NCBI GenBank assembly: GCA_008632985.1
Contig: QPGO01000323.1
Location: 1 to 55,287, forward strand
Length of the DNA: 55,287 nucleotides
Direction of reading: 5' to 3'
From: Psammoneis japonica
Lineage: Eukaryota
Each line of letters starts with the position of its first letter. Position 1 is the first letter of the stretch. Below the pieces are notes generated by a model. The model worked only from the letters and a program-made list of their open reading frames with translations, did not search any database and was not told the origin of the DNA. Shown in pieces: positions 1 to 55,287 of the stretch. The position numbers and the translations under genes are program-made.

Positions 1-3000
1 GGTTTCAGCTTCGTGCTCGCGCCATGCCACCTTCACCTTTGCCATCTCCTCATTGATTGCACGAGCCCAACAATCTGTCCCCGTTTCCTGATCAACCGCA
101 AAGCGTCCTCCGTGGACTTGGGCAGTCGGGCCCAAACTTGTGAGTCATGCGCCAGTGTTTCTTCTTGACCTTGGACACAATGCGATTCCATTCACGTGGG
201 ACATGTGTGACCCACCAAGCAAAAGCAGGTTCTTCCGTCAACCTGTTCGCAACAGCATGCTCAGCAACTTCAATGGGGTTGGAGTCCTTTAGATCTTTGA
301 GTTTGACCCAAGATGAGCTGCCATCCTTCCATCCAACCAATGACTTCCATCCTTTTGTTGTGATCTTCTTCTTCTCCTTCCCGTCAGCGGTTCGTGCGGT
401 GCCGTCAGCAATCGACACCGCATTGTCACTCCTCTCGTGGTCCTGCATCTCGTGCAAGATAGAATGCTGGTTGCCCTCGCTGTCGACCTGAGCAAACATG
501 TTCTTGGCAATGACATTGGCTGCACACTCATCTGTGGTTCCGTCGGCATGTTCCACTTCGTTTTCGCGAGTGTCAAACAATGGGTTTTGATGCCGAGTCC
601 CAATTGGACGCCCATCCTGTCCTCTTGCACGTTTCGTTNGCCGTCAGCTCCGATGTCAAACATGAGTTCCATTCCCAGGTGTTGATTGATTGCCTGCTCG
701 TCATCGTCGTCTGGTCACTCGTCGGGCAACAGCATGTTGCCACACTCCTCGTCCTCTGGCGTGATGCCACCCTCACATTCCACACCAAGGTTGCCGTCAA
801 TTGCAAGATTATCCAACACGAATGCGGGCACAGCTTCATTGCCTTTTAAGACAAAGTCAGCATCGTCCAATCGCTTCTTCAGCTGCTCGTTAAAGTTGTC
901 GACCTCAACACGAATGTCCGGTTGTGCCATGTCAGCCTGTGTCACATGCTCGACCAATGTTTTGGAGACAATCTTCCCGCTTTCCACAACAATCCAATGG
1001 CACATGTCCAAGCCAACTTTGTGTGAGATGCCAAGCCACCGTCCAAGCCTTCGAGGATCGTCAGTTGCACTCGGCTTGTTGGGCCTGTCCCACCACCATG
1101 CCATGTCGAAGAAACCAAAATCCAAACACTCGCCTGTCTCTGGTGTCTGCCCAGTGACCTCTTCACATCCAGCCCTCTTGTCCCTGCCTCTTGCCATGCA
1201 CGACACTAATTCTGACTCGCAAACAAGACCAAAATCCCACAATCGCTTTGGCACCTTCTTCTTTGTCATCCGCAGCCAACAACGTTTGGCCAAGAAACCA
1301 ATTTCGCGCTCCGCTGCCTGGTTCTGGTTCTTCCGACCCTGCTCTGATGTTCTCAATTGAACTCTCATGCATCGTACGTGTCTCACAAGCCTGTCGCAAA
1401 ATGATTGAAGTTGACAGATGGGAGACATGGACGACAGTTGCATTTCGACCTCGCCCCAGCGTGCTGCTTGGGACTTTGCCTTCTCGCTCCTTAGTTCCGA
1501 GACCTGTTCTTGTCGCATGCCAGAGGTCAATGATTGAATGGCACGCATCTCCGCCTGCTCTCTAGCGCGCTCTGGCAAGCCCATGTCCATCTGTGCTGGA
1601 TCCCATGCATCACCTGTCAACAGCACAACCGGCAAGTTCTGTGCTTCCCAATCCGTTGGAACACGAGACTTGAAAGACACAATTGTCCCTGTGGCATTGA
1701 AAGGGATGAAAGCTTCGTCAGCTTCAATGCCAAATCCGTTTCGGGCGTCGCAAGGGTTGTCGTGTGCGGGCATGTTGTGCGCACGGAGTTGGTTAGGATT
1801 CAAAAGTGAGTGTTGCATGTTGGTCCCAAACCAGAGCATTTGATCACCAACCAGCAAACATTCACGAGTCGTTTCCGGATCTGTCCATGCGGTGCAACAA
1901 CGTGCCACAGGAATCTGTTTGATCAGCTCACAAGAGTCCAGAAATGGGTGCACCTCGCACACTTCATTTGTCATCTCCATGAGCTTCCAGTTCGCCCCAG
2001 TGCAACAAGTGTCTGCGTGAGTGTCACATTCATTTCGAGCGACAAACCCAGGTGTTGTCAAATTTGTCATCTGTGCAGAACTCGTCGATCGGATCACACA
2101 TTTTGATGTCACGGCAATGTGCCTCTTTGTCGCCTTTCCTTTGAAACGAGATGTTGGGTGGGGTTTGGTCAACAGCAAGAAGGGTGGCACAAGCAAAAAC
2201 GACAAGTGTGCCAAATGCACCAACACTCCAGTGGCTGTTGCCACCCCAAGGAGTCAGGTGGAGCCATTGCATCCACCGCGATCCCGGTCAGCGCCGCGAC
2301 CACGCCCGCCACTCCTTTGCTCCTGATCCTGTTGTTGGGTTTGGCCTTGGCCATCTTGACAGACTTGGGCTTCAGCCACATGCCTGCCGCCCCCATCGCG
2401 TCCTTGTTGACCTGCGGGAGACCCACGGCCACCACCGCGTCCATGACCCATTCGTTCGCCAGCTTGGAACACGCAGCTCATGCCTCCATTGTGCTGTGAC
2501 TTTTCCCATTCTAGAGCACTAAAGCTCCTTGTAGGGTCGGATGCATTGACTCCATTGATCATCGTAGTGTGGTCGCCACCTCTGCCTTGACGGCCACCAC
2601 CACGTCCGCGTCCACCCCCACGTCCAAATCTTCCTCCACGACCGCGACCTCGATAAAAACCGCGGCCACCACCGCCACCACGGCTCATTTCAGAAATCTT
2701 GCGCTTCAAGCAACGCCGGGCTTCCAACTGAGCACCTGCATGCAAACGAGAGACTTCGGATGAGAAACAAGCACATGCCCCCGCAAAGTCACGAGGGTGC
2801 TGACTGCCAATGACAGCCGTTGCTGCAATGAGACGAGTGTCATCCGTTCGGATCCCCTTTAGAAGAATGTCAACTTTCTGTCGTTCAGATTTGCAGTCGT
2901 CCGGTGATTTGTTCAAAGTGGTGAAAGCACTGGCAAGTTTGTCATTGAACTTTTCGAACGGGAGCGATCCTTCCTTTTCACAAATCAAGGTTTCAACAGT

Positions 3001-3494
3001 TGCCGCAGCCAGATGGATGCGCTTGCTCAACTCGCCCTGTCCATTGCAATGGTCAACCCATGCGTTGAATGCTCCACGTCCGTCTTCTGTCGCGTCAAAC
3101 GGTTCAATCCATGCCCACCCTGCTGTGTTGACCAAGTGTTCCTTCAACACACGGCAAACGCTGCGGTTGTCCTCGTCATGTGCGGCACCATTCATTGGCA
3201 TCTGGCACATGCGCTGTTGTTGAGCATCCGTGAATGCAGCCGGAGCTGGCATTGTCCTTACGACACAGTGAAGGGGTTCTTTCAACACGCCAAATTTCTG
3301 TGCCAAGAGATTCAGGAAAGCATCTTCGCACACATCAAAGTCATCGGGCTTGAACTTTACGAGACCGCTTGCCAACGTGTCCGAATCCATGTGCTCCTTT
3401 TCGATGTGCATGCCATTCCGGCCCGCAGCCACAGCTGCTGCATTAAAGTCTGCCGCAACCAATGGCTGATTCCGTTTGAGCAAATCCTGGCACC
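1..3494 (-). repeat. Copy 2 (cut by the window edge) of a 4598-bp tandem duplication of gag-pol
   Basis: Near-identical to 4581-8092 (offset 4598 after the N at 639, which replaces about 17 bp). Confidence 0.92.
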
Positions 3495-6400
3495 TTCCTC
3501 CTCAATGTCCCCGTAAAACTCGGTCCAGTCTGCGTTCGAATTGAAAATAGATTCATCAATCACCGGTTCCTTTGGATCAAATCCGATGCGTCCGACGTTC
3601 TGGTGTTTCTTCATGTGCGCAAATGCATGATGCAATGCCTCAAGATGTCCTTTCCTTGGATTAGCTTGATGTTGAGATGGGATTGAAACCTCATGCAAGA
3701 CATCGATGCGACCCAACTTGATCGCCCAACGACAAATCCCTGTCAGCTGCAAATGCATGTCCACCAAGTCGGGGCCCAACTCGTCCGTCACGTCCAGTTC
3801 CAGTTTGTGCTTTGGGGGTGGTGGATCCTTTGCACTGTTCTTCAGAACCTCTCCATTGCCATCTTCATCCAATGGGCCTTCCACAGCCTCAATCGCCGAT
3901 TTGACATGTGACCTCGGTGAACTCGCCCAGATTGTGCGCCCATCCTGAGTCTGAACCTTCTCAACGTTAGCTCCAAGACAAACTTCTGGTTCTCCTTCGC
4001 TGCCGGGCTTCACGGCACAGTGTTCACCCATTGCAGCAACAATGGACTTCCCTTGATGGGAAATGACCAGCATGTCATCGACGCAAACCAAAAGCACTTC
4101 ACAATGCTCGTGCCCATCCTCACGAGTCGCCGCACGCAAGTGGACATCTGGGTCCGCTCTCGTCGATTCGAAGCCTGAGTCACGTGAGACCGATGACAGT
4201 GCAGACCTCCAAGAGTGTCCCTGGCTCTTTGAGCCATGCAACGCCCGAGCAACAACAAGCACCTTTCCTTCGCACTCGCCGCATTCCTTTCCACCTTCAA
4301 ACCACATCTTTTCTGTGCACGGTGCATTGAGACAAGCATTCTCCAGATCAATCGCCGTGGTGTCGACACCATTCAAGGCTGCTGACAAGAATCCAAGTCG
4401 CGCACTGTCTCTGGAAACCACGCCAGAGCAAGTGATCGATGCCGGGGCCTCTGTCGTGTGTCCGCCAGCTACAAACCTTGCCTTTCTGGTGAAATCCATT
4501 TTAATGTCGAATGCCATGTGGCACCTGATCTCCTGACAACCACGCAAAGTTGTGCTCTTGCCCCCCTGGACGACTTGAGGGGTTTCAGCTTCGTGTTCGC
4601 GCCATGCCACCTTCACCTTTGCCATCTCCTCATTGATTGCACGAGCCCAACAATCTGTCCCCGTTTCCTGATCAACCCGCAAAGCGTCCTCTGTGGACTT
4701 GGGCAGTCGGGCCCCAAACTTGTGAGTCATGCGCCAGTGTTTCTTCTTGACCTTGGACACAATGCGATTCCATTCACGTGGGACATGTGTGACCCACCAA
4801 GCAAAAGCAGGTTCTTCCGTCAACCTGTTCGCAACAGCATGCTCAGCAACTTCAATGGGGTTGGAGTCCTTTAGATCTTTGAGTTTGACCCAAGATGAGC
4901 TGCCATCCTTCCATCCAACCAATGACTTCCATCCTTTTGTTGTGATCTTCTTCTTCTCCTTCCCGTCAGCGGTTCGTGCGGTGCCGTCAGCAATCGACAC
5001 CGCATTGTCACTCCTCTCGTGGTCCTGCATCTCGTGCAAGATAGAATGCTGGTTGCCCTCGCTGTCGACCTGAGCAAACATGTTCTTGGCAATGACATTG
5101 GCTGCACACTCATCTGTGGTTCCGTCGGCATGTTCCACTTCGTTTTCGCGAGTGTCAAACAATGGGTTTTGATGCCGAGTCCCAATTGGACGCCCATCCT
5201 GTCCTCTTGCACGTTTCGTTACAACACCATGTCGCTCGCCGTCAGCTCCGATGTCAAACATGAGTTCCATTCCCAGGTGTTGATTGATTGCCTGCTCGTC
5301 ATCGTCGTCTGGTCACTCGTCGTGCAACAGCATGTTGCCACACTCCTCGTCCTCTGGCGTGATGCCACCCTCACATTCCACACCAAGGTTGCCGTCAATT
5401 GCAAGATCATCCAACACGAATGCGGGCACAGCTTCATTGCCTTTTAAGACAAAGTCAGCATCGTCCAATCGCTTCTTCAGCTGCTCGTTAAAGTTGTCGA
5501 CCTCAACACGAATGTCCGGTTGTGCCATGTCAGCCTGTGTCACATGCTCGACCGATGTTTTGGAGACAATCTTCCCGCTTTCCACAACAATCCAATGGCA
5601 CATGTCCGAGCCAACTTTGTGTGAGATGCCAAGCCACCGTCCAAGCCTTCGAGGATCGTCAGTTGCACTCGGCTTGTTGGGCCTGTCCCACCACCATGCC
5701 ATGTCGAAGAAACCAAAATCCAAACACTCGCCTGTCTCTGGTGTCTGCCCAGTGACCTCTTCACATCCAGCCCTCTTGTCCCTGCCTCTTGCCATGCACG
5801 ACACTAATTCTGACTCGCAAACAAGACCAAAATCCCACAATCGCTTTGGCACCTTCTTCTTTGTCATCCGCAGCCAACAACGTTTGGCCAAGAAACCAAT
5901 TTCGCGCTCCGCTGCCTGGTTCTGGTTCTTCCGACCCTGCTCTGATGTTCTCAATTGAACTCTCATGCATCGTACGTGTCTCACAAGCCTGTCGCAAAAT
6001 GATTGAAGTTGACAGATGGGAGACATGGACGACAGTTGCATTTCGACCTCGCCCCAGCGTGCTGCTTGGGACTTTGCCTTCTCGCTCCTTAGTTCCGAGA
6101 CCTGTTCTTGTCGCATGCCAGAGGTCAATGATTGAATGGCACGCATCTCCGCCTGCTCTCTAGCGCGCTCTGGCAAGCCCATGTCCATCTGTGCTGGATC
6201 CCATGCATCACCTGTCAACAGCACAACCGGCAAGTTCTGTGCTTCCCAATCCGTTGGAACACGAGACTTGAAAGACACAATTGTCCCTGTGGCATTGAAA
6301 GGGATGAAAGCTTCGTCAGCTTCAATGCCAAATCCGTTTCGGGCGTCGCAAGGGTTGTCGTGTGCGGGCATGTTGTGCGCACGGAGTTGGTTAGGATTCA

Positions 6401-6842
6401 AAAGTGAGTGTTGCATGTTGGTCCCAAACCAGAGCATTTGATCACCAACCAGCAAACATTCACGAGTCGTTTCCGGATCTGTCCATGCGGTGCAACAACG
6501 TGCCACAGGAATCTGTTTGATCAGCTCACAAGAGTCCAGAAATGGGTGCACCTCGCACACTTCATTTGTCATCTCCATGAGCTTCCAGTTCGCCCCAGTG
6601 CAACAAGTGTCTGCGTGAGTGTCACATTCATTTCGAGCGACAAACCCAGGTGTTGTCAAATTTGTCATCTGTGCAGAACTCGTCGATCGGATCACACATT
6701 TTGATGTCACGGCAATGTGCCTCTTTGTCGCCTTTCCTTTGAAACGAGATGTTGGGTGGGGTTTGGTCAACAGCAAGAAGGGTGGCACAAGCAAAAACGA
6801 CAAGTGTGCCAAATGCACCAACACTCCAGTGGCTGTTGCCAC
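3495..6842 (-). pseudogene. pol: copia A pol (protease, integrase lacking its core, chromo-like domain, RT; RNase H lost at the duplication junction)
   Basis: ORFs 5313-6842 and 3357-5270 contain DTHADT, WKDGSSSW, RKARFVAGGH, DLENACL, ALHGSKS and CVDD (from YVDD). Confidence 0.9.
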
Positions 6843-8092
6843 CCCAAGGAGTCAGGTGGAGCCATTGCATCCACCGCGATCCCGGTCAGCGCCGCGACCA
6901 CGCCCGCCACTCCTTTGCTCCTGATCCTGTTGTTGGGTTTGGCCTTGGCCATCTTGACAGACTTGGGCTTCAGCCACATGCCTGCCGCCCCCATCGCGTC
7001 CTTGTTGACCTGCGGGAGACCCACAGCCACCACCGCGTCCATGACCCATTCGTTCGCCAGCTTGGAACACGCAGCTCATGCCTCCATTGTGCTGTGACTT
7101 TTCCCATTCTAGAGCACTAAAGCTCCTTGTAGGGTCGGATGCATTGACTCCATTGATCATCGTAGTGTGGTCGCCACCTCTGCCTTGACGGCCACCACCA
7201 CGTCCGCGTCCACCCCCACGTCCAAATCTTCCTCCACGACCGCGACCTCGATAAAAACCGCGGCCACCACCGCCACCACGGCTCATTTCAGAAATCTTGC
7301 GCTTCAAGCAATGCCGGGCTTCCAACTGAGCACCTGCATGCAAACGAGAGACTTCGGATGAGAAACAAGCACATGCCCCCGCAAAGTCACGAGGGTGCTG
7401 ACTGCCAATGACAGCCGTTGCTGCAATGAGACGAGTGTCATCCGTTCGGATCCCCTTTAGAAGAATGTCAACTTTCTGTCGTTCAGATTTGCAGTCGTCC
7501 GGTGATTTGTTCAAAGTGGCGAAAGCACTGGCAAGTTTGTCATTGAACTTTTCGAACGGGAGCGATCCTTCCTTTTCACAAATCAAGGTTTCAACAGTTG
7601 CCGCAGCCAGATGGATGCGCTTGCTCAACTCGCCCTGTCCATTGCAATGGTCAACCCATGCGTTGAATGCTCCACGTCCGTCTTCTGTTGCGTCAAACGG
7701 TTCAATCCATGCCCACCCTGCTGTGTTGACCAAGTGTTCCTTCAACACACGGCAAACGCTGCGGTTGTCCTTGTCATGTGCGGCACCATTCATTGGCATC
7801 TGGCACATGCGCTGTTGTTGAGCATCCGTGAATGCAGCCGGAGCTGGCATTGTCCTTACGACACAGTGAAGGGGTTCTTTCAACACGCCAAATTTCTGTG
7901 CCAAGAGATTCAGGAAAGCATCTTCGCACACATCAAAGTCATCGGGCTTGAACTTTACGAGACCGCTTGCCAACGTGTCCGAATCCATGTGCTCCTTTTC
8001 GATGTGCATGCCATTCCGGCCCGCAGCCACAGCTGCTGCATTAAAGTCTGCCACAACCAATGGCTGATTCCGTTTGAGCAAATCCTGGCACC
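3495..8092 (-). repeat. Copy 1 of the 4598-bp tandem duplication
   Basis: The junction at 3494/3495 (ggcacc|ttcctcctc) joins the end of RT (FYGDIEEE) to mid-gag (WCQDLLKR). Confidence 0.92.
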
Positions 8093-8366
8093 ACCACACT
8101 GGCGCCTGCAAGTTCTTGATCTGAACAGTCCCAAGAGTCACACGTCCATCGGCCACCGTGCGACGAGACGCCCTCTGTGCCATGTCTTCCACATTGTGAT
8201 CACTCTCCATCACTGTGATGTTTTCCAAAGTCATGGGCCCTTCACAGAAGACCAACCTCGCCCTTGCGTTCTGGCCAGCAACACCACAAACTGGCAAAAC
8301 TGCGTCAATGTCAGCTGCCATGGCTGACGCCACAAGTGCTGCTGCTGGTGCTGCCGCTGCTGCCAT
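6852..8366 (-). pseudogene. gag: copia A gag with an RGG-rich C-terminus
   Basis: Open frame with copia gag motifs (AWIEPF..DGRGAF..GQGE, ERQKVDILLKGI). Only one Tyr remains. Confidence 0.85.
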
Positions 8367-8826
8367 CCCACAACAGAGAAAGGGTGTGAAGGTCCCACAC
8401 AAGGAACACACAGCTGTGAGTCTGCATGGTCATGATGGCTGCACTTTCTCTGTGTTGTGATGACGGGTTCACACAGCCACCCGACGTCAGGGTGATCAGT
8501 CCTGTGTCGTTCATGTCAACCAACATTGTTGAGCACACGCTCGGGCATGTCGCCCAATGCCGCAGTCCCTTCACACCCATCACATGTGTGAGGACAGTCA
8601 CTGTCTTTGAGAGTGTCACCATTGCAAGCTGTTTTTGTGGATGTCACAACAAGTGACACGAGACGCATCATCGTGCGCATCAATCCGAATTCTGACGCAT
8701 CGCGCACAGTTCAGCACCGTTTCTACAGCTGCACGTTCCATGCAAACAGCACAACAAACAATCGTCCATGACGAATTGTGTTTGAAACCATTTCGCTCTG
8801 TCTTTTTCGTCTTGGCTCTGACAAAG

Positions 8827-9008
8827 CGAATAAATCTCGATGCAATGAAAGAACAAGCACGACACCTTGAGTCTAAATGGAAAGCAGCGACACTGTCAAT
8901 GCAAGCCTGAACCTGATTAGATTGTGAGTGTGTTGCTGCAGCACCACTCGATCCATGTGTCTCAACCAATCACCAATTGCAACACAGCCCTCCATCCAGA
9001 TTCACTCG
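8827..9008 (-). repeat. 5' LTR of copia A (182 bp, CG...CG termini)
   Basis: Homologous to 27858-28039 and 34543-34692. A PBS-like ctttgtcagagcc follows immediately (8814-8826, minus). Confidence 0.88.
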
Positions 9009-11692: not shown

Positions 11693-14600
11693 ATGATTCC
11701 CTCGCCATCTTCCATTTGTTCCACTGCACTGCCAAGTGTTCTCCTGCAGCGCAGCATCACCCGACAGTCAGAGCTCCAAGCCCCAGTCTTCTCCTTGGAG
11801 GAGCGTGGCCCCAACATGAGCAGTGACTCCATTGGTGCATCCTGCATTGACAAATGGCAATCACTCCTGAGTGGCACCAGCAACAGCGCATCAAGCACTT
11901 GAAGCAGTGATTTTTCTTGGCTGACATCCAATGATCCTGTTGGTGATGACCTTCGTCTGAAGCTGCCTCATCACACTCGACTGCATGCATTCAACGCCAA
12001 TGGTTGTAAATTGGACAAAAGAGGTGGCGACGTTCGTGAATGTTGTCAAATGGCAAACGAGATCCAAGCAGATGTCATGGGCATTTTGGAAGTCTGTCTG
12101 GACACTGCACAGTGTGAAATTTTGTCAGTGTGTCGATCTGCTGCACACAGTGCAATTTCCAACAGATGCAGCACCTTCTCATGCAGCTCTGCCCCCTTTG
12201 CCACTCAGCACAAACCTGGTGGTGCGGCCCTTTTGTCGGGGAACTCCATCTCAGCATGATGCCAAAGCCAAGAATCAGATCCACTGGGCCGTTGGTCTGC
12301 TCAGATCTTCGACGGGCGCAATGGCAAGCAAGTCATGTTCCTTTCGTGCTGCAGAGTTTGTGCAAAAAATCAAAGGACCCCTGGAAAGACTGCAGCATGT
12401 GCACAACAAGCAGCCCTTTTACGACAAAACGGTGGACAGTCCATTGACCCCAGGAAGGAATTTTGCACGGATTTATCTTGTTGCCTGCAAGAGTTCTTGG
12501 TCAACTCAAATCGTGAAGTCATCATTTGCGGAGATTTCATCACTGATTTTTTGATTGACGCGGACACTCTCGCCTCCCTTGCACAGCGTTTTACCCTTTT
12601 GGATGTGTCACATGATTTGATGGGCAGCACTGAATTTTCCACATGCACGCCAGGACGGAAATGCCTGGACTTTGTGCTTGCTGCCCCCGGTGCCTTGTCT
12701 GCTTCCAGGTTCAGCAGATGTGAAGCATTCGGTTGTCGCATCACTTCAGACCACCACGCTTGCTTCGTGGACTTTGACACGATGGCCTTGTCTGGGAACC
12801 CCACAGTTGACTTGCCTGAGGCCAGCTGCAGGGACATCCAGTGTTCTTCACAACCCCAAATTGCAACCTGCTCAGATGCCATTGGACAGATGTTGGCCAG
12901 CAGACAAATCTTGGCTTGCTCACAGGCACTGCTTGATCAAGACGCCCCTGATCACAAACCAGCAGAAAGGTCAGATTGAGGCATGTTGCAGCTCTCCTTG
13001 GCTGCTGCTGAGAAGTGTCGGGTCCACCAAGAACCAGAGTGGTCGGTTGAACTGTCACAACTGTGGCACCGAGTTCATGTCCTTGGCCATGTGGTCTCAA
13101 TGATGCACACCCGCCTGGATCAAGTCAGCCATGTCCACACTGTCTGAGACAAGCTGCAAGGTTCTTTTGCCTTCCCAGGCTGAATGTGGACAAGTTGCTG
13201 CTGAGAGCGTTGCACACTGCAAAAATGAAATGGCCAAGAAGATTGCCTCACTAGAAGTGGAAGGCACAAAGGAGTCAAAACAGAAACAAAGATCACACAA
13301 AATGTCCACAAGGCCAAAGAAACCAAGAAACTTTTCTGCAAGATTGAATGCTGCAAACTTGACAGTGACAATGGCATCAACAGCGTGCAGGTGCCCCGGA
13401 ACCCCATGGTGAATCCCAAAGAGTGTGAGGACTGGGTTGCCATGGACGCCCCAGATGATGTGGCTTCCGCCATCTGCCACCGCAGCCAGCATCATTTCGG
13501 TCAAGGAGCGTGGCCCCAACATGAGCAGTGACTCCATTGGTGCATCCTGCATTGACAAATGGCAATCACTCCTGAGCGGCACCAGCAACAACGCATCAAG
13601 CACTCGAAGCAGTGATTTTTCTTGGCTGACATCCAATGATCCTGTTGGTGATGACCTTCGTCCGAAGCTGCCTCATCACACTCGACTGCACGCATTCAAT
13701 GCCAATGGTTGTAAATTGGACAAAAGAGGTGGTGACATTCGTGAATGTTGTCAAATGGCAAACGAGATCCAAGCAGACGTCATGGGCATTTTGGAAGTCT
13801 GTCTGGACACTGCACAGTGTGAAATTTTGTCAGTGTGTCGATCTGCTGCACACAGTGCAATTTCCAACAGACGCAGCACCTTCTCATGCAGCTCTGCCCC
13901 CTTTGCCACTCAGCACAAACCTGGTGGTGCGGCCCTTTTGTCGGGGAACTCCATCTCAGCATGATGCCGAAGCCAAGAATCAGATCCACTGGGCCGTTGG
14001 TCTGATCAGATCTTTGACGGGTGCAATGGCAAGCAAGTCACGCTCCTTTTGTGCTGCAGAGTTTGTGCGAAAAATCAAAGGACCCATGGAAAGACTGCAG
14101 CATGTGCACAACAAGCAGCCCTTTTACGACAAAACGGTGGACAGTCCATTGACCCCAGGAAGGAATTTTGCACGGATTTGTCTTGTTGCCTGCAAGAGTT
14201 CTTGGTCAACTCAAATCGTGAAGTCATCATTTGCGGAGATTTCATCACTGACTTTTTGATTGACGCGGACACTCTCGCCTCCCTTGCACAGCGTTTTACC
14301 CTTTTGGATGTGTCACATGATTTGATGGGCAGCACTGAATTTTCCACATGCACGCCAGGACGGAAATGCCTGGACTTTGTGCTTGCTGCCCCCAGTGCCT
14401 TGTCTGCTTCCAGGTTCGGTGGATGTGAAGCATTTGGTTGTCGCATCGCTTCAGACCACCGCGCTTGCTTCGTGGACTTTGACACGATGGCCTTGTCTGG
14501 AAACCCCACAGTTGACTTGCCCAAGGCCAGCTGCAGGGACATCCAGTCTTCTTCACAACCCCAAATTGCAACCTGCTTAGATGCCACAGGACAGATGTCA

Positions 14601-34542: not shown

Positions 34543-34692
34543 CGAGTAAATCTGGATGGAGGGCCATGTCACAACTGGTGATTGGTTGAGACACATGGAT
34601 CCAGTGGTGCTGCAATGACACGCTCACAATCTAATCAGGTTTAGGTTCGCAAGGTGTCGTGCTTGTTCTTTCATTGCATCGAGATTTGTTCG
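34543..34692 (+). repeat. 3' LTR of copia A (about 32-bp internal deletion)
   Basis: cgagtaaatctgg...gagatttgttcg. Confidence 0.9.
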
Positions 34693-43060: not shown

Positions 43061-43179
43061 GAAGCTGTGCTTCGATTGACTCTGTTGACAAACACATCCG
43101 CCGAACCCTGACTGTGCCGGTGAAATCAATCCCAAGCAATCACATGTTGTGTTGCGTCGTGCGCATGTGTTGTGTTGCC

Positions 43180-43500
43180 TTGTTGTTTGTTGTTGTTGTT
43201 TCGGGTTGTCCTTTGGCGCCGTTTGTTAGATGCAGCTGACATGGTCTTTTGACAACACTGCACACACAATGCAAACCTGCAATTGCAAGAACCATTCAAT
43301 GCGTTCATGCAAACCCAAACTGCCTTTCTTTGTCCAACCTTGTAACTGCTTGATCCAAAAACAACATCACACTTTTCGCCACAGCACTTTGTGGGGAACA
43401 GTGGGTTGGTTTTGAAGCACGCTTGAGTGGAATATTTTCCGTCATCTTGATGGACCAAGGCATGGAACAAGTGAGCCTCCTCGCACTTGCACTGCAAACA
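43180..43500 (-). pseudogene. Small Cys-rich, possibly zinc-binding protein fragment (second copy at about 48413-48733)
   Basis: CEEAH..PTKCCGEKC..VWVCMN..CRFALCVQC within ORF 43126-43686; some of the Cys are probably former Tyr. Confidence 0.4.
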
Positions 43501-43879
43501 CAAACAAACAAACACAATTGGTTTGCATGCGTGAACAAGACAACACAACAACAGGCATGCCAAATCAACAATGACGTTCGCTCCACACCTGCGAATTGCA
43601 AGCAGTTGTTTGATCCACTTGAGCCACAACGAGTGTTGCAGTTTTGTGTGTGCGTTTGTCATTTGCTGTCTTTGTCTTTGTTGCAAACAAACAACAAAGT
43701 GAGAGGTGATGTTTCCAAGACACTGCGCACAATCTGCACGACTTCATCATGCATTCTCACCGCTTTGTTTTGCAATGGATTTAACAATGGTTTAGAGTGG
43801 TTGGCTGGTTGAGTCTGCAAAAGAAATGCCATCATGACACACATTGAATGCCGTTGGATCAACTTCTCAATGGCAATCC

Positions 43880-44500
43880 GGAGCACCAACAATGCTCTCA
43901 CCTTTTCATTTGCGCCATTTGCCATTGTCTCTTCGACCTTTCTCATTGCAAACAACAATGGCTGTGTGAGACGTGTCCGATGAATTGCACAATTGGCTGC
44001 AAGACAATGTGATCTTGCCGTCTTCTGTGGTGCTCTCTCTGGCATTTCAGCAACTGGGGATGGTTGAGTCTGGCATCCAGCAATGACACCCCAAAGTGGT
44101 TGGAGCAATTGTTTCATTTGCAACTGGAGCACCGACAATGCTCTCACCTTTTCATTGTTGCCACTGTCAACCACCTCATTTGCCTGGTCATGAAGAACAG
44201 CAGGAGCAGTGTGATTGGTCAATCCAATCCATGTGTCGTGCTCTGCCTCAGAACTCTGTTCACCCACTTGTTTTTTTGTGCTCGCTCCAGTGTTTCAACT
44301 GTCTGGGATGGTTTGGTGTGGCATCCCAGCAACCCAATGAGGCCAAAGAGCTGTTAGAGCAACAGTCCAAATTGACAGCTGGAGCACCGACAATGCTCTC
44401 ACCTTTTCTTTTGCACCAGTTGGCTCGTCCATCTCATCAACCTTTTGCATGAAGAACAGTGGTGTGAGCGACGTGCAATTCAGCCGCATGACATGGTGCA
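43880..44500. repeat. Three diverged units of about 250 bp
   Basis: ggagcacc(a/g)acaatgctctcaccttttc at about 43880, 44126 and 44381. Confidence 0.7.
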
Positions 44501-45130
44501 TTTTTCTTGCCGCTGGAGCGTTCCCGGGCTCTTGTTCCATCCTGCAACAAGGGGACCCAGACAGCTGTGTCTGACAAGCCAAAAAAGGCATCAAAGCGGA
44601 AGTTGGTTAGAGCCATCCAACACCACAGCAATTGGACCACCAAATCACACAGTCACCTGTGACACATCCAAATCCATGGTGAGGGGTTCTGGTTCATCAT
44701 TGCGCTCCCGACGAGGAATTTGCTCTGCCTCCTTCTCCTTCTCGGTTAACTTCCGCTTTGCCGTTGGTTCGGATGGGCAATTTAGCGCGGTGTCCATGGT
44801 CAGTGTTGACACCTGAGTTTCGAACTCATGTTGCAGATCAAGCACAATCTCTTCGTTGACCATTTGGGATGAACTGGTGACTGTCATGCTGCCACGAATC
44901 GACTGGAGCAAATCTTCCTTGGACAGCGGAACTCCCATTTGTTCTGACAACATGCTTGCTGTTTTCGCAAGGTCCACAAGGGATGCAATGTCAATGTCTT
45001 TGCTGGATGCTCCCTGAGCAACTTGTTTTGATGCTTCGGTGTTCTCCTCCTGCTGTCAAGGACCGGAAATGGGAACGAAGTTGTCAACCAAACAAGATTG
45101 TCAACAAAAGGACAAACAAACAATGTGCGA

Positions 45131-45895
45131 CTAACTCACCGCCACTGGTTTCATCGACACGATGTAAAACTTTGCTTTGGTTGTTGTCCCCGCATTGGTT
45201 GCAGCGGGGACGGCCACATGTGTTTTACCTCCATTCTCCTTGTTGCTCTTGTGCATTGTAGTTGCCACACACCAGCCTGCTTTCCGCAGCATAAACTCGA
45301 CAAACATTTTAATTGTTTGACATTTGGCTTGGCGTGCCACCACAGCAAACCCGCCTCTGTCATCGCGGTGCATTTTGCGAGGTTTGCTGGAAGTGTCCGT
45401 GGTGTGCGGCATGAGCTTCATGTTGTTTGCGGTGAACCATTTGTCAATGGCAGCAGCCAGCCATCCTCTGTTGCGATGAAAGGCGTGGAAAACTTGACAC
45501 ACGAGCTGCTGATTCTCGGTTGTGTTGTCCATGCTTGCCAGAATGTTTTTGAAGTCTTCTGTTGTGACGGGATTGGTGTTTGTTGATGGCATCACCACTT
45601 CCTTGTCCATTGCATTTTTCTGACAGCCCTCCAGGTGTTGAGTCATGACGTGTTGTCGAAGGGACGACCGGATTTGTGCCACCTCTTGAAGCATCTTCTT
45701 GCCATTGGGCGGCACCGTCTCCACCTCACCAAGTTGTGGACGTGCCTTTAGGCATGACCACAAAAGAGCAGCATCCTCTGGTCTTGTGGGGTCAGCCCCT
45801 GTCGTCGGATGGAAAAAGTCTCTTGGACAATCCAATGGACGATTGGGCGCTGTTGTTTTTTCCCCTGGATTTGTTGCAGAAGCTTCCCACTGCAT
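45131..45895 (-). pseudogene. Unknown protein-like ORF, possibly spliced to 44645-44977 (second copy at 50334-51128)
   Basis: Composition looks like a real globular protein; no family recognised. Confidence 0.4.
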
Positions 45896-48800
45896 GTCAG
45901 ATCACAATGTTGGCTTCCAAACACACACTTTGATTTCAAATGCACCTGCCTGTGTTCCCTGCTGTTGCAACATCTGTCCTTGACGGGGTTGTGTTTCCCT
46001 CTGTTGAAGTGTTTGCCCTCGATGTGTTTGTAAGATCAAGGCTGACGACCGACACCTGTGTCTGATGAAATGAATTCGTCATTGTGTTTTCGACTTCTAA
46101 TTGCTTTTCACACTTGTGGATGGTCCGGGACGAGCCGAATCTGTTTGGCGCAATTGCAAAGTCACGGTTGCATGTTCTCATTGCACGGTTTTTGAGTTGT
46201 GTTCAGTTTCATTCATTTCTGCATTTTTTGTTGTTTCAATCAAGCACTGTTGTTCTGAAATGAACATTCACAACCATGTCGACCTGTTGTGTTAAGAAGA
46301 TTGTTCTTTCCTCCCATTTGCAACAAAATTTTCTTTAAACAAAAATTGGGTTCTCATTGGTTCACTTTTGAATGCATGATTTTCCACAATTGAAGTTTGA
46401 TTTTTCATGTGTGTTCTTTTTTAAAGTGAACGCTTCATCTACGTTGTTGAATGAAATGCATTGTGCAATCACACGATTGGGTGGGAGTGCATGCACGCGC
46501 GCGTGCTGCTCTTTCAGCGTGTGGAACATGTGTGGGGCCCCACGTGCAGGGCTTGTCTGCAAATGCGCAGTGCAGCAGAGTGCATGTGTTTTGCGCTTTT
46601 GGTGATTGAGAGCACATGCGTTGCTCCACCTCATTTTCACAAATCCTCTGCGCTGCGCAAGCCCATCAACAGAACTGCGATCCCTCCCCTCTTTTCCATC
46701 CAATCATCTTTTGGGACTCTTCTTGAATCTTGCATCTTGCTCTTTTGTGCGTTGAACAATCCCAAATGACGCCATGGACGACATGGCAAACAATTGGGGG
46801 TGCAATTTGGTTGCCGTTAGCCCGCGTGGCTTAAAACGCAATGGCGAAGATTTGATGAATTCTTCCATGGACATCGGCCATCACAAGCAGTTGGAAGAAG
46901 TCATTTTTTGTCACTTTGATGGCGAATTGCTGCTGCACAAAGTGACGCCAAACGGCTCCAATGCAAATTTGTTGGCTGCCACCTGCACTGCCATTGACGA
47001 GGACCTCATTGCTGCCACCCGTCTTGCAGGAGCTCAGCATGCACAGGACAGGCAATGCCTGCATGACCTCTTGAAGAAGCCAGTGACAGGGGGGCCTGGG
47101 TGGGCTTTTGTCAAACCTTCCAATCGCAGCCACGATGGTTGCACTGCCTTCTTTGCACTTGAGAGGCAGGCGGAAGGATCAACTGCCGCCACCACCCGAA
47201 AGAACTGTGCTCATGCACAGATTGCCACCGCAAAGTGCACCGGACGAGGTCAATTTACATTTGACCAGTGTGTTCAGCGTCATCAAAAGGCTCGCAACGA
47301 CTTGTCTGAGCTCAACGAACCGGCAGCCAAGACCAAGAAGGTCTCTGACTTTCTGAAGGGCATTTCTGACCCTGGGTTGGAAACTGGTGAGAGCGCAGTG
47401 GATGGAGACCCAACGAAGCTGGTGGACTTTGAGGCATGCCAGCAGTGTGTGAAAACTCTGGTCGAGAATGCCAAGAACCGCAATGTTGACACTCGCAGGG
47501 TTGCATCCATCCAATGCTGCAACAACAGGCACACTGACCCTGGTGGGAAGCACCAACCTAAAAAGGACAAGCCCAGAATCCGGGCAGGTCATTGTCCCAT
47601 CAAAGAGTGGAGTGCTCTTGACGGTCCCGAACGAGAGCAAGTCCAAAAGCTCCGTGATGCCAAGAAGGCCGAGAAGAAATGCAAAGCTGCTGCTGCGTCC
47701 TTGGAGGCTGAGTCGGTCGACACCAAAACTCGTGCCGCAAAGAAAGTGGCTGTCGCCGAGCCCACTTCTCAACCTGCTGATGCACCGAAAGACTCCGAAG
47801 AGAATGACAAACCTGCCGCCAATGCAGGTGCCCAACTCCACTGCAGATGAGATTCTCTTCATTTGTGCTCCGAACACTTTATTCTGAGCAACGCTTCATT
47901 TAAATTGTCCCGACACAATGTGGGACATTCAGAGCAAACAAGAGTCAATTAAGGCGACAACGCCCATGCAGAGCACAATCAGAGTAAATTTGGTCATTCG
48001 GAGCCATGGAATTTTGTTTGGAGCATTGCATCCAGAGCATCAATTTGCAAATTAGAGCATTGTGCTGACATTCAGAGCGCTGCTGTGATTGTGTCCATTC
48101 AATCAGAGCACGACTCTGAATGATGTTTGGATGCCCGTGGAATCTCCATTTAATTGGAGCAAAGCTCTGAATGGACAACGGACATTTGGCTAGAGCAAAG
48201 CTCTGAATGAACAACGGACGACGACAGCCTCTCCATTTAAACAGATCACAGCTGTGATCAAATTTGCTGATGCTCTGAATGACTGTCATTTACGAAGCTG
48301 TGCTTCGATTGACTCTGTTGACAAACACATCCGCCGAACCCTGACTGTGCCGGTGAAATCAATCCCAAGCAATCACATGTTGTGTTGCGTTGTGCGCATG
48401 TGTTGTGTTGCCTTGTTGTTTGTTGTTGTTGTTTCGGGTTGTCCTTTGGCGCCGTTTGTTAGATGCAGCTGACATGGTCTTTTGACAACACTGCACACAC
48501 AATGCAAACCTGCAATTGCAGGAACCATTCAATGCGTTCATGCAAACCCAAACTGCCTTTCTTTGTCCAACCTTGTAACTGCTTGATCCAAAAACAACAT
48601 CACACTTTTCACCACAGCACTTTGCAGGGAACAGTGGGTTGGTTTTGAAGCACGCTTGAGTGGAATGTTTTCCGTCATCTTGATGGACCAAGGCATGGAA
48701 CAAGTGAGCCTCCTCGCACTTGCACTGCAAACACAAACAAACAAACACAATTGGTTTGCATGCGTGGACAAGACAACACAACAACAGGCATGCCAAATCA

Positions 48801-51800
48801 ACAATGACGTTTGCTCCACACCTGCGAATTGCAAGCAGTTGTTTGATCCACTTGAGCCACAACGAGTGTTGCAGTTTTGTGTGTGCGTTTGTCATTTGCT
48901 GTCTTTGTCTTTGTTGCAAACAAACAACAAAGTGAGAGGTGATGTTTCCAAGACACTGCGCACAATCTGCACGACTTCATCATGCATTCTCACCGCTTTG
49001 TTTTGCAATGGATTTAACAATGGTTTAGAGTGGTTGGCTGGTTGAGTCTGCAAAAGAAATGCCATCATGACACACATTGAATGCCGTTGGATCAACTTCT
49101 CAATGGCAATCTGGAGCACCAACAATGCTCTCACCTTTTCATTTGTGCCATTTGCCATTGTCTCTTCGACCTTTCTCATTGCAAACAACAATGGCTGTGT
49201 GAGATGTGTCCGATGAATTGCACAATTGGCTGCAAGACAATGTGATCTTGCCGTCTTCTGTGGTGCTCTCTCTGGCATTTCAGCAACTGGGGATGGTTGA
49301 GTCTGGCATCCAGCAATGACGCCCCAAAGTGGTTGGAGCAATTGTTTCATTTGCAACTGGAGCACCGACAATGCTCTCACCTTTTCATTGTTGCCACTGT
49401 CAACCACCTCATTTGCCTGGTCATGAAGAACAGCAGGAGCAGTGTGATTGGTCAATCCAATCCATGTGTCGTGCTCTGCCTCAGAACTCTGTTCACCCAC
49501 TTGTTTTTTTTGTGCTCGCTCCAGTGTTTCAACTGTCTGGGATGGTTTGGTGTGGCATCCAGCAACCCAATGAGGCCAAAGAGCTGTTAGAGCAACAGTC
49601 CAAATTGACAGCTGGAGCACCGACAATGCTCTCACCTTTTCTTTTGCACCAGTTGGCTCGTCCATCTCATCAACCTTTTGCATGAAGAACAGTGGTGTGA
49701 GCGACGTGCAATTCAGCCGCATGACATGGTGCATTTTTCTTGCCGCTGGAGCGTTCCCGGGCTCTTGTTCCATCCTGCAACAAGGGGACCCAGACAGCTG
49801 TGTCTGACAAGCCAAAAAAGGCATCAAAGCGGAAGTTGGTTAGAGCCATCCAACACCACAGCAATTGGACCACCAAATCACACAGTCACCTGTGACACAT
49901 CCAAATCCATGGTGAGGGGTTCTAGTTCATCATTGCGCTCCCGACGAGGAATTTGCTCTGCCTCCTTCTCCTTCTCGGTTAACTTCCGCTTTGCCGTTGG
50001 TTCGGATGGGCAATTTAGCGCGGTGTCCATGGTCAGTGTTGACACCTGAGTTTCGAACTCATGTTGCAGATCAAGCACAATCTCTTCGTTGACCATTTGG
50101 GATGAACTGGTGACTGTCATGCTGCCACGAATCGACTGGAGCAAATCTTCCTTGGACAGCGGAACTCCCATTTGTTCTGACAACATGCTTGCTGTTTTCG
50201 CAAGGTCCACAAGGGATGCAATGTCAATGTCTTTGCTGGATGCTCCCTGAGCAACTTGTTTTGATGCTTCAGTGTTCTCCTCCTGCTGTCAAGGACCGGA
50301 AATGGGAACGAAGTCGTCAACCAAACAAGATTGTCAACAAAAGGACAAACAAACAATGTGCGACTGACTCACCGCCACTGGTTTCATCGACACGATGTAA
50401 AACTTTGCTTTGGTTGTTGTTTCCGCATTGGTTGCAGCGGGGACGGCCACATGTGTTTTACCTCCATTCTCCTTGTTGCTCTTGTGCATTGTAGTTGCCA
50501 CACACCAGCCTGCTTTCCGCAGCATGAACTCGACAAACGTTTTAATTGTTTGACATTTGGCTTGGCGTGCCACCACAGCAAACCCGCCTCTGTCATCACG
50601 GTGCATTTTGCGAGGTTTGCTGGAAGCGTCCGTGGTGCGCGGCATGAGCTTCATGTTGTTTGCGGTGAACCATTTGTCAATGGCAGCAGCCAGCCATCCT
50701 CTGTTGCGATGAAAGGCGTGGAAAACTTGACACACGAGCTGCTGATTCTCGGTTGTGTTGTCCATGCTTGCCAGAATGTTTTTGAAGTCTTCTGTTGTGA
50801 CGGGATTGGTGTTTGTTGATGGCATCACCACTTCCTTGTCCATTGCATTTTTCTGACAGCCCTCCAGGTGTTGAGTCATGACGTGTTGTCGAAGGGACGA
50901 CCGGATTTGTGCCACCTCTTGAAGCATCTTCTTGCCATTGGGCGGCACCGTCTCCACCTCACCAAGTTGTGGACGTGCCTTTAGGCATGACCACAAAAGA
51001 GCAGCATCCTCTGGTCTTGTGGGGTCAGCCCCTGTCGTCGGATGGAAAAAGTCTCTTGGACAATCCAATGGACGATTGGGCACTGTTGTTTTTTCCCCTG
51101 GATTTGTTGCAGAAGCTTCCCACTGCATGTCAGATCACAATGTTGGCTTCCAAACACACACTTTGATTTCAAATGCACCTGCCTGTGTTCCCCGCTGTTG
51201 CAACATCTGTCCTTGACGGGGTTGTGTTTCCCTCTGTTGAAGTGTTTGCCCTCGATGTGTTTGCAAGATCAAGGCTGACGACCGACACCTGTGTCTGATG
51301 AAATGAGTTCGTCATTGTGTTTTTGACTTCTGATTGCTTTTCACACTTGTGGATGGTCCGGGACAAGCCGAATCTGTTTGGCGCAATTGCAAAGTCACGG
51401 TTGCATGTTCTCATTGCGCGGTTTTTGAGTTGTGTTCAGTTTCATTCATTTCTGCATTTTTTGTTGTTTCAATCAAGCACTGTTGTTCTGAAATGAACAC
51501 TCACAACCATGTCGACCTGTTGTGTTAAGAAGATTGTTCTTTCCTCCCATTTGCAACAAAATTTTCTTTAAACAAAAATTGGGTTCTCATTGGCTCACTT
51601 TTGAATGCATGATTTTCCACAATTGAAGTTTGATTTTTCATGTGTGTTCTTTTTTAAAGTGAGCGCTTCATCTACGTTGTTGAATGAAATGCATTGTGCA
51701 ATCACACGATTGGGTGGGAGTGCATGCGCGCGCGCGTGCTGCTCTTTCAGCGTGTGGAACATGTGTGGGGCCCCACGTGCAGGGCTTGTCTGCAAATGCG

Positions 51801-52006
51801 CAGTGCAGCAGAATGCATGTGTTTTGCGCTTTTGGTGATTGAGAGCACATGCGTTGCTCCACCTCATTTTCACAAATCCTCTGCGCTGCGCAAGCCCATC
51901 AACAGAACTGCGATCCCTCCCCTCTTTTCCATCCAATCATCTTTTGGGACTCTTCTTGAATCTTGCATCTTGCTCTTTTGCGCGTTGAACAATCCCAAAC
52001 GATGCC

Positions 52007-53506
52007 ATGGACGACATGGCAAACAATTGGGGGTGCAATTTGGTTGCCGTTAGCCTGCGTGGCTTAAAACGCAATGGCAAAGATTTGATGAATTCTTCCA
52101 TGGACATTGGCCATCACAAGCAGTTGGAAGAAGTCATTTTTCGTCACTTTGATGGTGAATTGCTGCTGCACAAAGTGATGCCAAACGGCTCCGATGCAAA
52201 TTTGTTTGCAATTAATTCTGTGACGGGAGGTTGTGTGGCCGGCGATCATGGGCCTGTCCACTGTTGGACTGCCAGCACGTTCAGTGCAGAACATGGTCCG
52301 AGCACGGCAATGCACCCAGATGACGTGTTTAACTCTTTTACACGCAATCACACCATTGCGCTGCCGCATCATGTGCCAGGCACTCTGAGCTCCGCGGAGC
52401 TCAGTGAGCACGAAAACGATTGTCTCAACCACATTCATCTCCGTTGTTTGATGCAGGCTGTAAAGAAGGTGCCAATCACTGCATTGTTTTTAGAATTGAT
52501 GCTGGCAAACAATGGCGCAACACTCAGCGACAACTTTCTAGAATCTCTCGGTCGGTTGGCTCACCACCATTCCTTTGAGATTGTTGTTGATGAAATTGTG
52601 ACGGGCGGACGCAGTGGATGCATGCTGTCATGCCTGGCCAAACCCAAGCATTTTGTTGATGCTGTTGCCTGTGTTGCCATGGGCAAATGGCTGCAAGCTG
52701 GCACAGTTTTAGCAAAACCCGATCGTTGCAATCGGTTTTGCAGCATGACATCATCTCTTCCCAATCGTGGTGCCTCCACGGGCATGGATTGCAAACAAAC
52801 TGTCATGACATGGAAGACTGCAACTTCACAGTTTCATCTTACAGCCGAGCGTCAACAAACTGTCCTGAAGAAACTCAAAGTGACAGAGCAAGATGCGTGG
52901 GGCAGCGGCTTGCTTGTGTTTGCTCCTGTGAAACGAAGTGATCTGACACCAGTGATCAAGAATCGTTTCCTTCCTTTGCTTTGCGCCGCCCCATTGGACA
53001 ACGTGAAAGTCCAAAAGCACGATCAGTGGACGAAGCCTCTTGTGAGCCAATGCATTGTTGATGGGTGCCGCTGTTGGTCAAACGCACACCCGCACACGGA
53101 CGAGGAAATGAGCGGCACACACAAATTGCTCAGTCATTTTGCGGATCAACCCGCGGGCACGTGTTTTCAAACTAAGGGGCTCATGATGAATGTCCTTGGT
53201 GGGAAGCCTCACACACTGCCGCAAACGTGCCAACTGTTGCGTGCTGCAGAAAAGGCCGGGCTTGTTGGCAAAACATTGGTGACTTGCAAATGCCTGCATG
53301 CCTGGAAATCGTTGGCCCCGACAACCATGTCAAGCAAGAAGAACCAACCTGCAATTGCATTGTCTTGCCGCTTGCGTTTGTGCAACCTTGTTTGGACAGC
53401 CTTCGGCATTTCAAAAAAAACTGCTTCCTCCACTGCTGATTTTGGATCTTCTGCCAGTGCATCTGTTTCAAATGTGTCATTCCCTGAACACCAATTCAAC
53501 CACTGA
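52007..53506 (+). pseudogene. Class-III PLP-dependent aminotransferase-like gene
   Basis: NGSDANLFAI, ALFLELML, IVVDEIVTGGRSG and VAMGKWLQAG match the SGSEAN / EP / DEVxTGxGRxG / GK signature. No Tyr in 499 aa. Confidence 0.7.
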
Positions 53507-54360: not shown

Positions 54361-55140
54361 TCAGCAAATGTTCTGCCGTGCTTGAAATCTTCGAACCATC
54401 CACACAAAACTGGCTGGCACCTCACTTTCATCCGGCCGTGTGGCCCGATCGACCCACTCAAAGCCATGCAGCCGTTCCAATTCTTTGGCATCCTCACAGC
54501 ACATCCTCGCCTCATGACGTAGATCTTGACATTTCTTGTCCCCAGCAGACAACACTTTTCTTCGTGACACAAGGAGACCTTGATCTTCTGGCTCCGATTC
54601 GGACTCCTCTTCCTCTGGGTCACCATCTCCCTCTTGTGGTTTCGGCTCCGTCTTTTCTCTCTTGTTTCCCCTGGCAGAGAATTTTTTGTCAAGCATCGCC
54701 TCCTTCGCCAGCTCTGTAAAACGACATTGTCGGAACAACCGATTGATCTGGTGCCAATGCAGTTGTTCCGCTTCTTTGCACCAAATTGCAGTGTGTCGCA
54801 AAGGTGGCAGAAAGAAATCCTTTTTGTTCAACCGCACTTGGCATTTCTCTGGGTCCTTCAGAGTTTCTCTGTCTTCTTGTGCAGCGCCAATCAGCAGTTC
54901 GCACACTGCACTTTTGCTTTGTGCAGTGCAAATGGGGCACTTGCCCGGAACACACATTGCATGATCACAGCAAGGTCCCGCAAGGGCTGAAAACAAAGTT
55001 GCTGCTGGTGACAGTCCACCTTGATCTTCCTGGTTGCAGTCGATGGGAAACACCATGTTGCACGTGCTGCACTTCAAATGGATGCTTTCAAGAAGTTGGC
55101 GTGTGGCTCCATCATCACCCAAAGGCATTTCCATTTCCAT
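54361..55140 (-). pseudogene. Unknown ORF with CxxC motifs and an acidic linker
   Basis: CSTC...CDHAMC..CPIC (RING-like spacing). It probably belongs to the same frameshifted gene as 53500-54306. Confidence 0.35.
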
Positions 55141-55287
55141 GTCTTCATCTGAATCGCTCCGACTCCGTTGGCGACACTTGGGGTTGAGAACATGCTTCCG
55201 GTCATCAGTTCCCGACTCCGCAGTTGCGCCAAACTTGCCCCTTCACACATTTCGCTCTTGAGCTGGCTCAAAGTCCTCGATCGAAAC

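Follow-up and report, generated by a model that had tools for sequence, protein, structure and literature searches.

Near-saturating loss of TpA in decayed repeats of Psammoneis japonica: a candidate genome-defence footprint with the chemistry of RIP reversed

To our knowledge, every described hypermutation system that is turned on repeats or retroelements (repeat-induced point mutation, RIP; APOBEC; AID-like) works by deaminating cytosine and shifts DNA toward A:T. We describe here a stretch of 55,287 nucleotides from Psammoneis japonica (assembly GCA_008632985.1, contig QPGO01000323.1, positions 1 to 55,287; in the following, the window) whose mutational footprint runs the opposite way: one dinucleotide, TpA, has been removed according to a clean three-base motif and to about 90% saturation. 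Judging by its sequence, the stretch is apparently a tract of dead, decayed retrotransposons and other repeats from a diatom. As a candidate, the genome-defence reading of this footprint is plausible.

Fungal RIP is confined to repeats, takes place at a premeiotic stage and depends on a RID/DNMT4-like enzyme. Like the process recorded in the window, it introduces near-saturating transitions into repeats after their insertion, on either strand and in a dinucleotide context, and destroys their coding capacity. RIP, however, changes C:G to T:A, mostly CpA to TpA, and thus creates TpA and AT-rich DNA, whereas here TpA is destroyed and GC rises. According to the portion of PMC9998398 that deals with them, diatoms carry DNMT4 enzymes related to RID, with function unknown. 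Since DNMT4 is a cytosine enzyme, it does not explain the loss of TA.

Other described systems share single traits with the footprint. Deamination of 5-methylcytosine (5mC) at CpG also turns a palindromic dinucleotide into TpG or CpA by one transition on either strand, and it is present here as a second layer; its target is nevertheless CpG and not TpA, it is several-fold slower here, and the flank rule described below belongs to TpA loss. APOBEC and AID leave retroelements densely marked by transitions at a short, strand-specific motif, but they convert C to U on one strand (the cDNA) before integration, whereas the changes in the window are A:T to G:C, on both strands and after integration. 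TadA/ADAT and the base editors derived from them convert A to I, read as G, with T or U at position -1 and, in the native bacterial site, a pyrimidine at +1. Their natural substrates are tRNA loops, while here T is preferred over C at +1, and we know of no natural TadA/ADAT-family enzyme that hypermutates chromosomal DNA. In Escherichia coli, very-short-patch repair depletes CTAG, a word containing TA, to CA or TG because T:G mismatches are corrected with a bias. The depletion there is mild and concerns one tetranucleotide, whereas here CTAG is among the best survivors (0.30) and the effect amounts to about 90% overall. No known kind of system covers the footprint; in logic it is closest to fungal RIP, with the chemistry reversed. 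A full-text literature search, with most subscription journals outside its scope, returned no description of TpA-erasing hypermutation, and the footprint is apparently undescribed.

The window as a whole (1..55287, without strand) is a uniformly TpA-depleted tract. TA occurs 246 times, against about 3,250 predicted from base composition (observed/expected ratio, o/e, 0.08). TG (5643) and CA (5610) each reach an o/e of 1.63; the values are 0.64 for CG (2339), 0.92 for AT (2996) and 1.21 for AA (3729). In all 56 one-kb bins the o/e of TA lies between 0.00 and 0.18, the depletion being flat over elements, long terminal repeats (LTRs) and unclassified DNA alike. These values bear out an earlier note on this DNA, which had described TA as rare and TG and CA as abundant in coding and non-coding sequence. 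They also agree with its view that neither RIP nor 5mC deamination offers an explanation. RIP would give C:G to T:A changes with enrichment of TpA, the direction opposite to that found (TA o/e 0.08, CA and TG 1.63, TAY changed to CAY or TGY). Decay of 5mC leaves TpA unaffected and cannot remove TA, although CpG decay is present (CG o/e 0.64). Stop triplets are altered accordingly: over the three plus-strand frames there are 105 TAA and 89 TAG, versus 1152 TGA. Because TAA and TAG are nearly gone, long open reading frames (ORFs) are abundant, and an ORF in this DNA is therefore no evidence of a gene. Four long ORFs reported to lack tyrosine do so, with 0 Tyr in stop-to-stop frames of 594, 700, 724 and 505 amino acids.

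Three copia-type elements were delimited by self-comparison and LTR searches. The first, el1, is a decayed LTR retrotransposon on the minus strand, cut by the window start (1..9008; self-BLAST and RVT_2 match). El2 (15534..22466, plus strand) has LTRs at 15534-15714 and 22288-22466 and an RVT_2 match. El3 (27857..34692, plus strand) has LTRs at 27857-28039 and 34542-34692 and a pol ORF, whose stop-to-stop frame (31308..33479, plus strand, 724 amino acids, 0 Tyr) served as the homology query. This frame matches intact copia-type polyproteins with E values down to 1e-266 at 55-61% identity, and the only named sources among its relatives are Nitzschia inconspicua and Fragilaria crotonensis, both diatoms. 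The reverse transcriptase (RT) ORF of el3 and its el1 counterpart share 89% amino acid identity.

Comparison with such relatives reveals the direction of change. Tyr is lost, almost always to Cys or His. In those columns that are identical in 9 or more of 11 intact relatives, conserved Tyr was kept at 0 of 13 positions in el1 and 0 of 17 in the other copia copy (replaced by Cys 8 times, His 7 times, Val once and Asn once). In columns of the same kind, Gly was kept at 36/36, Phe at 12/12, Pro at 12/12, Lys at 16/18 and Asn at 12/13. The other frequent replacements (Ile by Val, Met or Thr; Leu by Ser or Pro; Val by Ala; Thr by Ala) are those expected from TA to TG or CA within or across codons. 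At the level of motifs, CVDD stands at 33285 and HVND at 20917, ALCGSK at 33126, ALHGSK at 4227 (minus strand) and NACL at 33030 and 4329 (minus strand), all as quoted earlier; a second CVDD lies at 4074 (minus strand).

A wider comparison, in which 120 copia relatives and 40 aminotransferase-like ones were searched against the window by tblastn, gave 73 codons with Tyr in at least 80% of aligned relatives, or 65 after removal of 8 in younger duplicate copies. At these 65 non-duplicated codons we found CA (His) 31 times, TG (Cys) 24 times, TA (Tyr) 3 times and other states 7 times. One of the three survivors is the Tyr of ALYGLK (20755-20772), which is intact in the el2 RT; the catalytic motif of that same RT reads HVND. 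In the aminotransferase-like ORF described below there is no Tyr, versus 8-18 in its relatives, and all three conserved Tyr are replaced (1 Cys, 2 His).

Which TA survives depends strongly on its neighbours. Survival was taken as the content of the window relative to the tetranucleotide make-up of 77 intact loci. It is 0.002 for GTAT/ATAC, 0.004 for ATAT and 0.02 for GTAC; 0.03 for ATAG, ATAA and their complements; 0.11-0.13 for GTAG, GTAA and their complements; and 0.30-0.35 for CTAG (0.30), TTAG/CTAA and TTAA. With R for purine and Y for pyrimidine, the classes are thus R-TA-Y (0.002-0.02), mixed (0.03-0.13) and Y-TA-R (0.30-0.35). In our own fit on the survival table, the half-sites contribute almost additively to log-survival (A 2.8, G 1.9, C 0.6, T 0.5), the preference for the 5' base being A > G >> C, T. 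Read on the adenine, T at -1 is strict and the order at +1 is T > C >> G, A; the same data fit equally well a T to C change at R-T-A.

The flanks also decide which strand is changed. Tyr codons, where the 3' base of TA is always a pyrimidine, became CA rather than TG by 26 to 7 after a 5' purine and by 5 to 17 after a 5' pyrimidine (odds ratio 12.6, Fisher p 6.7e-5). This test was used in place of flank-versus-product tables built from sites at which copies disagree, because each such site yields one TG and one CA by construction. Since the flank decides which strand changes, the unit of attack is not a symmetric duplex site but R-T-A to R-C-A on one strand. The motif is thus a strand-specific one of three bases, R-T-A to R-C-A, equivalently T-A-Y to T-G-Y, and the products are TpG or CpA, never CpG, one base pair being changed per TpA. 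Neighbouring events are largely independent in strand: runs tests gave 22 runs versus 26.0 expected and 26 versus 31.3, and neighbouring disagreeing sites more than 2 bases apart are alike as often as different. Strand-wise reading of a modified base is not fitted by this absence of long same-strand runs. Adjacent sites behave otherwise. Former TATA became TGTG or CACA in 6 of 6 neighbouring pairs between el1 and el3, never TGCA or CATG, and likewise at 18190-18193 and in the el3 LTRs. This suggests either a single event on one strand covering both steps or a context rule acting after the first change.

Among R-TA-Y Tyr codons, the 26 to 7 excess is one of T to C on the sense strand, and it occurs in elements of both orientations (9:1, 9:2 and 6:4 over el1 at 3495-9008, el2 and el3, with a further 2:0 from the aminotransferase-like ORF). 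The excess may point to an asymmetry linked to transcription or to the sense strand.

Because an element integrates with two identical LTRs, comparing them dates the loss. The el3 pair (151 aligned bases) shows 5 TG/CA doublets, 4 TA-versus-TG/CA sites, 2 CpG sites and 2 other differences; the el2 pair (179 aligned bases) shows 3 doublets, 4 TA-versus-TG/CA sites, 1 CpG site and 5 others. The alignment of el1 with el3 covers 5513 bases and contains 101 adjacent double mismatches, of which 84 are TG/CA; counted by dinucleotide there are 88 TG/CA doublets, 19 TA-versus-TG/CA sites and 15 shared TA. TA-versus-CG does not occur in any of five pair tables. TG-versus-CA doublets between the LTRs of one element place the loss of TA after insertion. 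TA was erased in each copy and on each strand independently, a trait shared with RIP, where integrated copies are also changed independently on either strand (doublets 5, 3 and 88). Together with the Tyr codons and the o/e values, the LTR pairs support one part of the proposal of the earlier note, a context-specific A:T to G:C change acting at TpA to near saturation (about 90%).

Assuming independent loss per copy and equal strand choice, the TA density at the time of the split is calculated as 38 per kb for the element bodies and 61-93 per kb for the LTRs, intact relatives (77 loci) having 47 per kb. By this estimate, the elements would have inserted with ordinary TA content. Three duplications, all found by self-BLAST, are different: dupA, a segmental duplication inside el1 (1-3494/4581-8092, 99.1% identical), and the tandem plus-strand duplications dupB (11799..15211, as 11799-13505/13504-15211, 97.2%) and dupC (41737..52206, as 41737-46973/46970-52206, 98.8%). 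At their formation the inferred density was 5-8 TA per kb (about 8 for dupB and dupC). Insertion thus came first, erasure second and duplication third. In dupC, 8 TA-versus-TG/CA sites stand beside 30 shared TA, and slow loss of the remaining TA went on after duplication. Differences between duplicates are mostly CG-versus-TG/CA (9 in dupA, 24 in dupB, 42 in dupC); rearrangement of the region and CpG decay are both still under way.

Substitutions derived neither from TA nor from CpG provide a baseline for rates. Over six pairs, TA loss exceeds it 269, 294, 93, 293, 155 and 62 fold, and CpG decay, in the same order of pairs, 26, 20, 5, 62, 103 and 54 fold, the numbers behind the LTR, dupA and dupB figures being small. 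In the copia pair, TA loss thus runs at 269-fold versus 26-fold for CpG decay, with 137 CG-versus-TG/CA sites beside 225 shared CG; the weaker CpG decay is a second layer over TpA loss. The TA loss per copy is similar in the three copia elements (0.73-0.95).

We are highly confident that this footprint is real and fixed in the DNA. Of the words sampled from a 6-kb stretch, 39% occur in a public DNA run, X1, whose contigs agree with the window without a differing letter over 1456 and 439 bases at a depth of 32-36; with exact contigs from a public run, an artefact of consensus or polishing is excluded. Over 7602 aligned paralogous contigs of X1, the 1501 listed difference places comprise 1323 transitions and 178 transversions and include adjacent CA/TG pairs, for example at 17379/17380. 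Loose-end consensus letters from X1 contain TA, but at low agreement (0.36-0.61), and were not used as evidence of TA-normal DNA. Outside the window, three protein records from Logan, ENA and JGI (P0206, P0217 and P0156) have Cys or His in place of conserved Tyr at 4/4, 4/4 and 4/5 columns, so that by their sequences the same replacement would extend, at the protein level, to copia fragments beyond this window. Depletion is found in none of the 77 related metagenome copia loci (TA o/e 0.54-0.93). No close paralogue of the window pol was found in the protein collection (best identity 61% near full length, 67% for a shorter match), and a contig scan with the same pol gave 40 pattern matches and 0 relatives.

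A technical artefact, whether through misreading of a modified base by polymerase or sequencer, chemical conversion of the library or faulty polishing, is accordingly very improbable and can be regarded as largely refuted. In its favour, X1 is possibly the source sample of the assembly, and the only DNA run containing the stretch would then not be independent of that sample. Yet contigs from X1 alone reproduce the fine-scale mixture of TG and CA exactly; strand-wise misreading would yield long same-strand runs or TA/CG mixtures, while runs are near random and TA-versus-CG is never seen; young duplicates have their TG/CA states in common (a single doublet over the 5236 bases of dupC and none over the 3494 of dupA); and the three protein records with the same Tyr replacement are of other origin. 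Scarcely credible, too, is A-to-I editing of a retrotransposon transcript by an ADAR/ADAT-type enzyme, fixed by reverse transcription, even though the preference for U at -1 resembles that of known A-to-I editing enzymes. Such editing would change A to G in the sense strand only and before integration, whereas both strands are affected (His 31 versus Cys 24), the LTRs of one element differ by TG/CA doublets, sequence without a retroelement Pfam match is equally depleted, and AA is untouched. The LTR pairs refute editing before integration as the main cause, and the untouched AA also speaks against an ADAR-type preference.

Much more weight has to be given to a genome-wide, context-specific bias, which we consider unlikely but a serious alternative. 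Here a lineage-specific change in replication or repair, such as loss of repair for one particular lesion or a glycosylase that corrects mismatches with a bias, would raise T-A-Y to T-G-Y everywhere, with selection keeping TA in genes and dead repeats evolving neutrally. TA loss roughly scales with background divergence, in a clock-like manner, across six pairs covering 0.04% to 1.4% per copy; the depletion is flat over elements, LTRs and unclassified DNA; and the similar loss in all three copia elements looks as if it had one shared onset. Against this stands the normal TA content at insertion (38-93 versus 47 per kb in relatives): active lineages cannot have been long under a roughly 100-300 fold TA pressure, which requires either a recent onset of the bias or a shielding of active copies. 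At that rate, Tyr codons, stops and other functional TA throughout the genome would presumably carry a very heavy load, and the strand-specific three-base motif resembles an enzyme site. Decay of a modified thymine appears less probable still. A TET/JBP-type or similar enzyme would mark T in R-T-A on silenced repeats (5-hydroxymethyluracil, 5-formyluracil or a base J-like product), and mispairing with G or misrepair would lead to T to C, a TpA counterpart of 5mC decay at CpG; this presumes that such bases are mutagenic. The motif can equally well be read as R-[T>C]-A, the sense-strand excess of 26:7 in both orientations fits a T lesion removed from the transcribed strand, and CpG decay co-occurs in the same DNA. 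A symmetric maintained mark, on the other hand, would not predict that a flank steers its own strand only, and among the matches listed, literature combining diatoms with 5-hydroxymethyluracil concerns, by title, dinoflagellates.

We favour an enzyme-driven and repeat-directed origin of the footprint, a combined claim to which we give a little less than an even chance. LTR retrotransposons and other repeats entered the region with ordinary TpA content, after which a process turned almost every TpA into TpG or CpA by one A:T to G:C transition, attacking the strands separately at R-T-A to R-C-A (T-A-Y to T-G-Y). In the preferred mechanism, held at about one chance in three, a deaminase-fold enzyme would deaminate adenine in DNA to hypoxanthine at T-A-Y, the inosine being read as G at the next replication. 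After adenine deamination, we favour mutagenic thymine modification at R-T-A and then a context-specific replication or repair bias. Normal TA content at arrival favours targeting or a recent onset, a long-standing genome-wide pressure of such size not being compatible with it. Taken further, a repeat-directed defence of diatoms or of this lineage, with a candidate DNA adenine deaminase or thymine-acting enzyme guided to silenced transposons and changing A:T to G:C at 5'-T-A-Y-3', is a tentative and rather unlikely proposal; it would erase Tyr codons and make sense codons of the stops TAA and TAG, a chemical mirror of fungal RIP.

Among the candidates named in the earlier note, a TadA/ADAT-like adenine deaminase is possible and fits the requirement for T at -1. 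Error-prone synthesis of the Pol-eta type, whose WA motif means A to G at both TA and AA, has been rejected: AA is untouched (o/e 1.21), with Lys kept at 16/18 and Asn at 12/13 versus Tyr at 0/17. Decay of N6-methyladenine (6mA) is weakened as well, and in its ApT form (AMT1-type) is rejected, since the o/e of AT is 0.92 and the target here is TpA in dead repeats. As far as the consulted part of 10.1101/2024.10.28.620566 describes it, eukaryotic 6mA is symmetric at ApT, lies on active genes and not on transposable elements, has little mutagenic effect and leaves no ApT depletion; in the one diatom examined there, Phaeodactylum tricornutum, 6mA was not detected.

Several points weigh against an enzyme directed to repeats. 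The rough scaling of TA loss with background divergence across pairs of different age means that a slow continuous process fits at least as well as RIP-like bursts do, and that a genome-wide bias fits too. The sense-strand T to C excess (26:7) is not predicted by purely symmetric attack and is the opposite of what an adenine deaminase attacking the exposed non-template strand would leave. A lesion on A (T-A-Y) and a lesion on the paired T (R-T-A) are indistinguishable in these data, and the native TadA site, which we take to have C at +1, differs from the preference for T over C seen here. The enzyme is a candidate proposed from the mutation pattern, and the depletion is known here from a window with no recognisable single-copy gene, positions 16001-36000 of which are all repeated.

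If an enzyme is responsible, it would be the first natural A:T to G:C mutator of chromosomal DNA. It would then offer a ready natural activity for converting adenine (or thymine) at a defined sequence, and would represent a new class of genome defence in a group of algae that is ecologically dominant. If the cause is a bias of the whole genome, mutability about 100-300 fold above background at a single dinucleotide would still be extreme in the evolution of mutation spectra, and gene finding, repeat dating and codon-usage analyses would be distorted for this genome. With the motif and the LTR-pair test, the question can be tested directly on the full assembly.

Pfam searches of 156 ORF translations, some of them overlapping, returned RVT_2 (copia type), a weak Aminotran_3 match and three weak matches below threshold (Bet_v_1, DUF7560 and DUF1635). 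The earlier note had listed copia, gypsy, LINE and enzyme-like sequences as affected. Copia and, by its weak match, the enzyme-like gene were recovered, while gypsy and LINE, as well as DNA-transposase domains, were not found among these translations, where decay may mask families. Rfam and tRNA scans detected no RNA genes, these scans and Pfam revealed no recognisable single-copy gene in the window, and no RNA run is listed as containing the stretch. In 30 of 30 bins over positions 16001-36000, the summed X1 contig depth is at least about 9 times that of exact single contigs, and this part of the window is therefore repeated DNA. X1 contigs also join 27856 to 34698, a form without the el3 body.

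All three marks of Ty1/copia elements are present: an LTR pair, a primer-binding-like site beside the 5' LTR and a pol with RVT_2. The 11-base motif TTTGTCAGAGC occurs four times, at 15714, 28039 and 40681 on the plus strand and at 8827 on the minus strand. It lies directly inside the mapped 5' LTR in el2 (15714) and el3 (28039), and in el1 it is close to where the 5' end is expected (8827). The motif resembles a primer-binding site that these copia families have in common. At the base of the motif that carries TG in the window, relatives have T 7 times, G 2 times and A 2 times (11 matches in 77 loci, the relatives being highly variable). El1 contains a single N, at position 639.

An aminotransferase class-III-like ORF of 505 amino acids (51989..53503, plus strand, 0 Tyr; weak Aminotran_3 Pfam match) belongs to a multi-copy family, and the start of a related copy lies at 46756-47847. 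The family forms protein clusters with up to 273 member sequences, on Mb-scale contigs, and looks like a repeat-borne or massively amplified gene in eukaryotic assemblies.

A very high-copy repeat of about 380 bp is found at 27143..27522 (plus strand; self-BLAST and contig depth), with further copies at 35767-36164 (inverted) and 40110-40497, all equally TA-poor. Its summed X1 contig depth of 54,764, versus about 32-36 for exact single contigs, implies a copy number of about a thousand or more. The repeat could be an LTR or another terminal repeat. Two of its copies form an inverted pair 3.9 kb apart, with the primer-binding-like motif at 40681.

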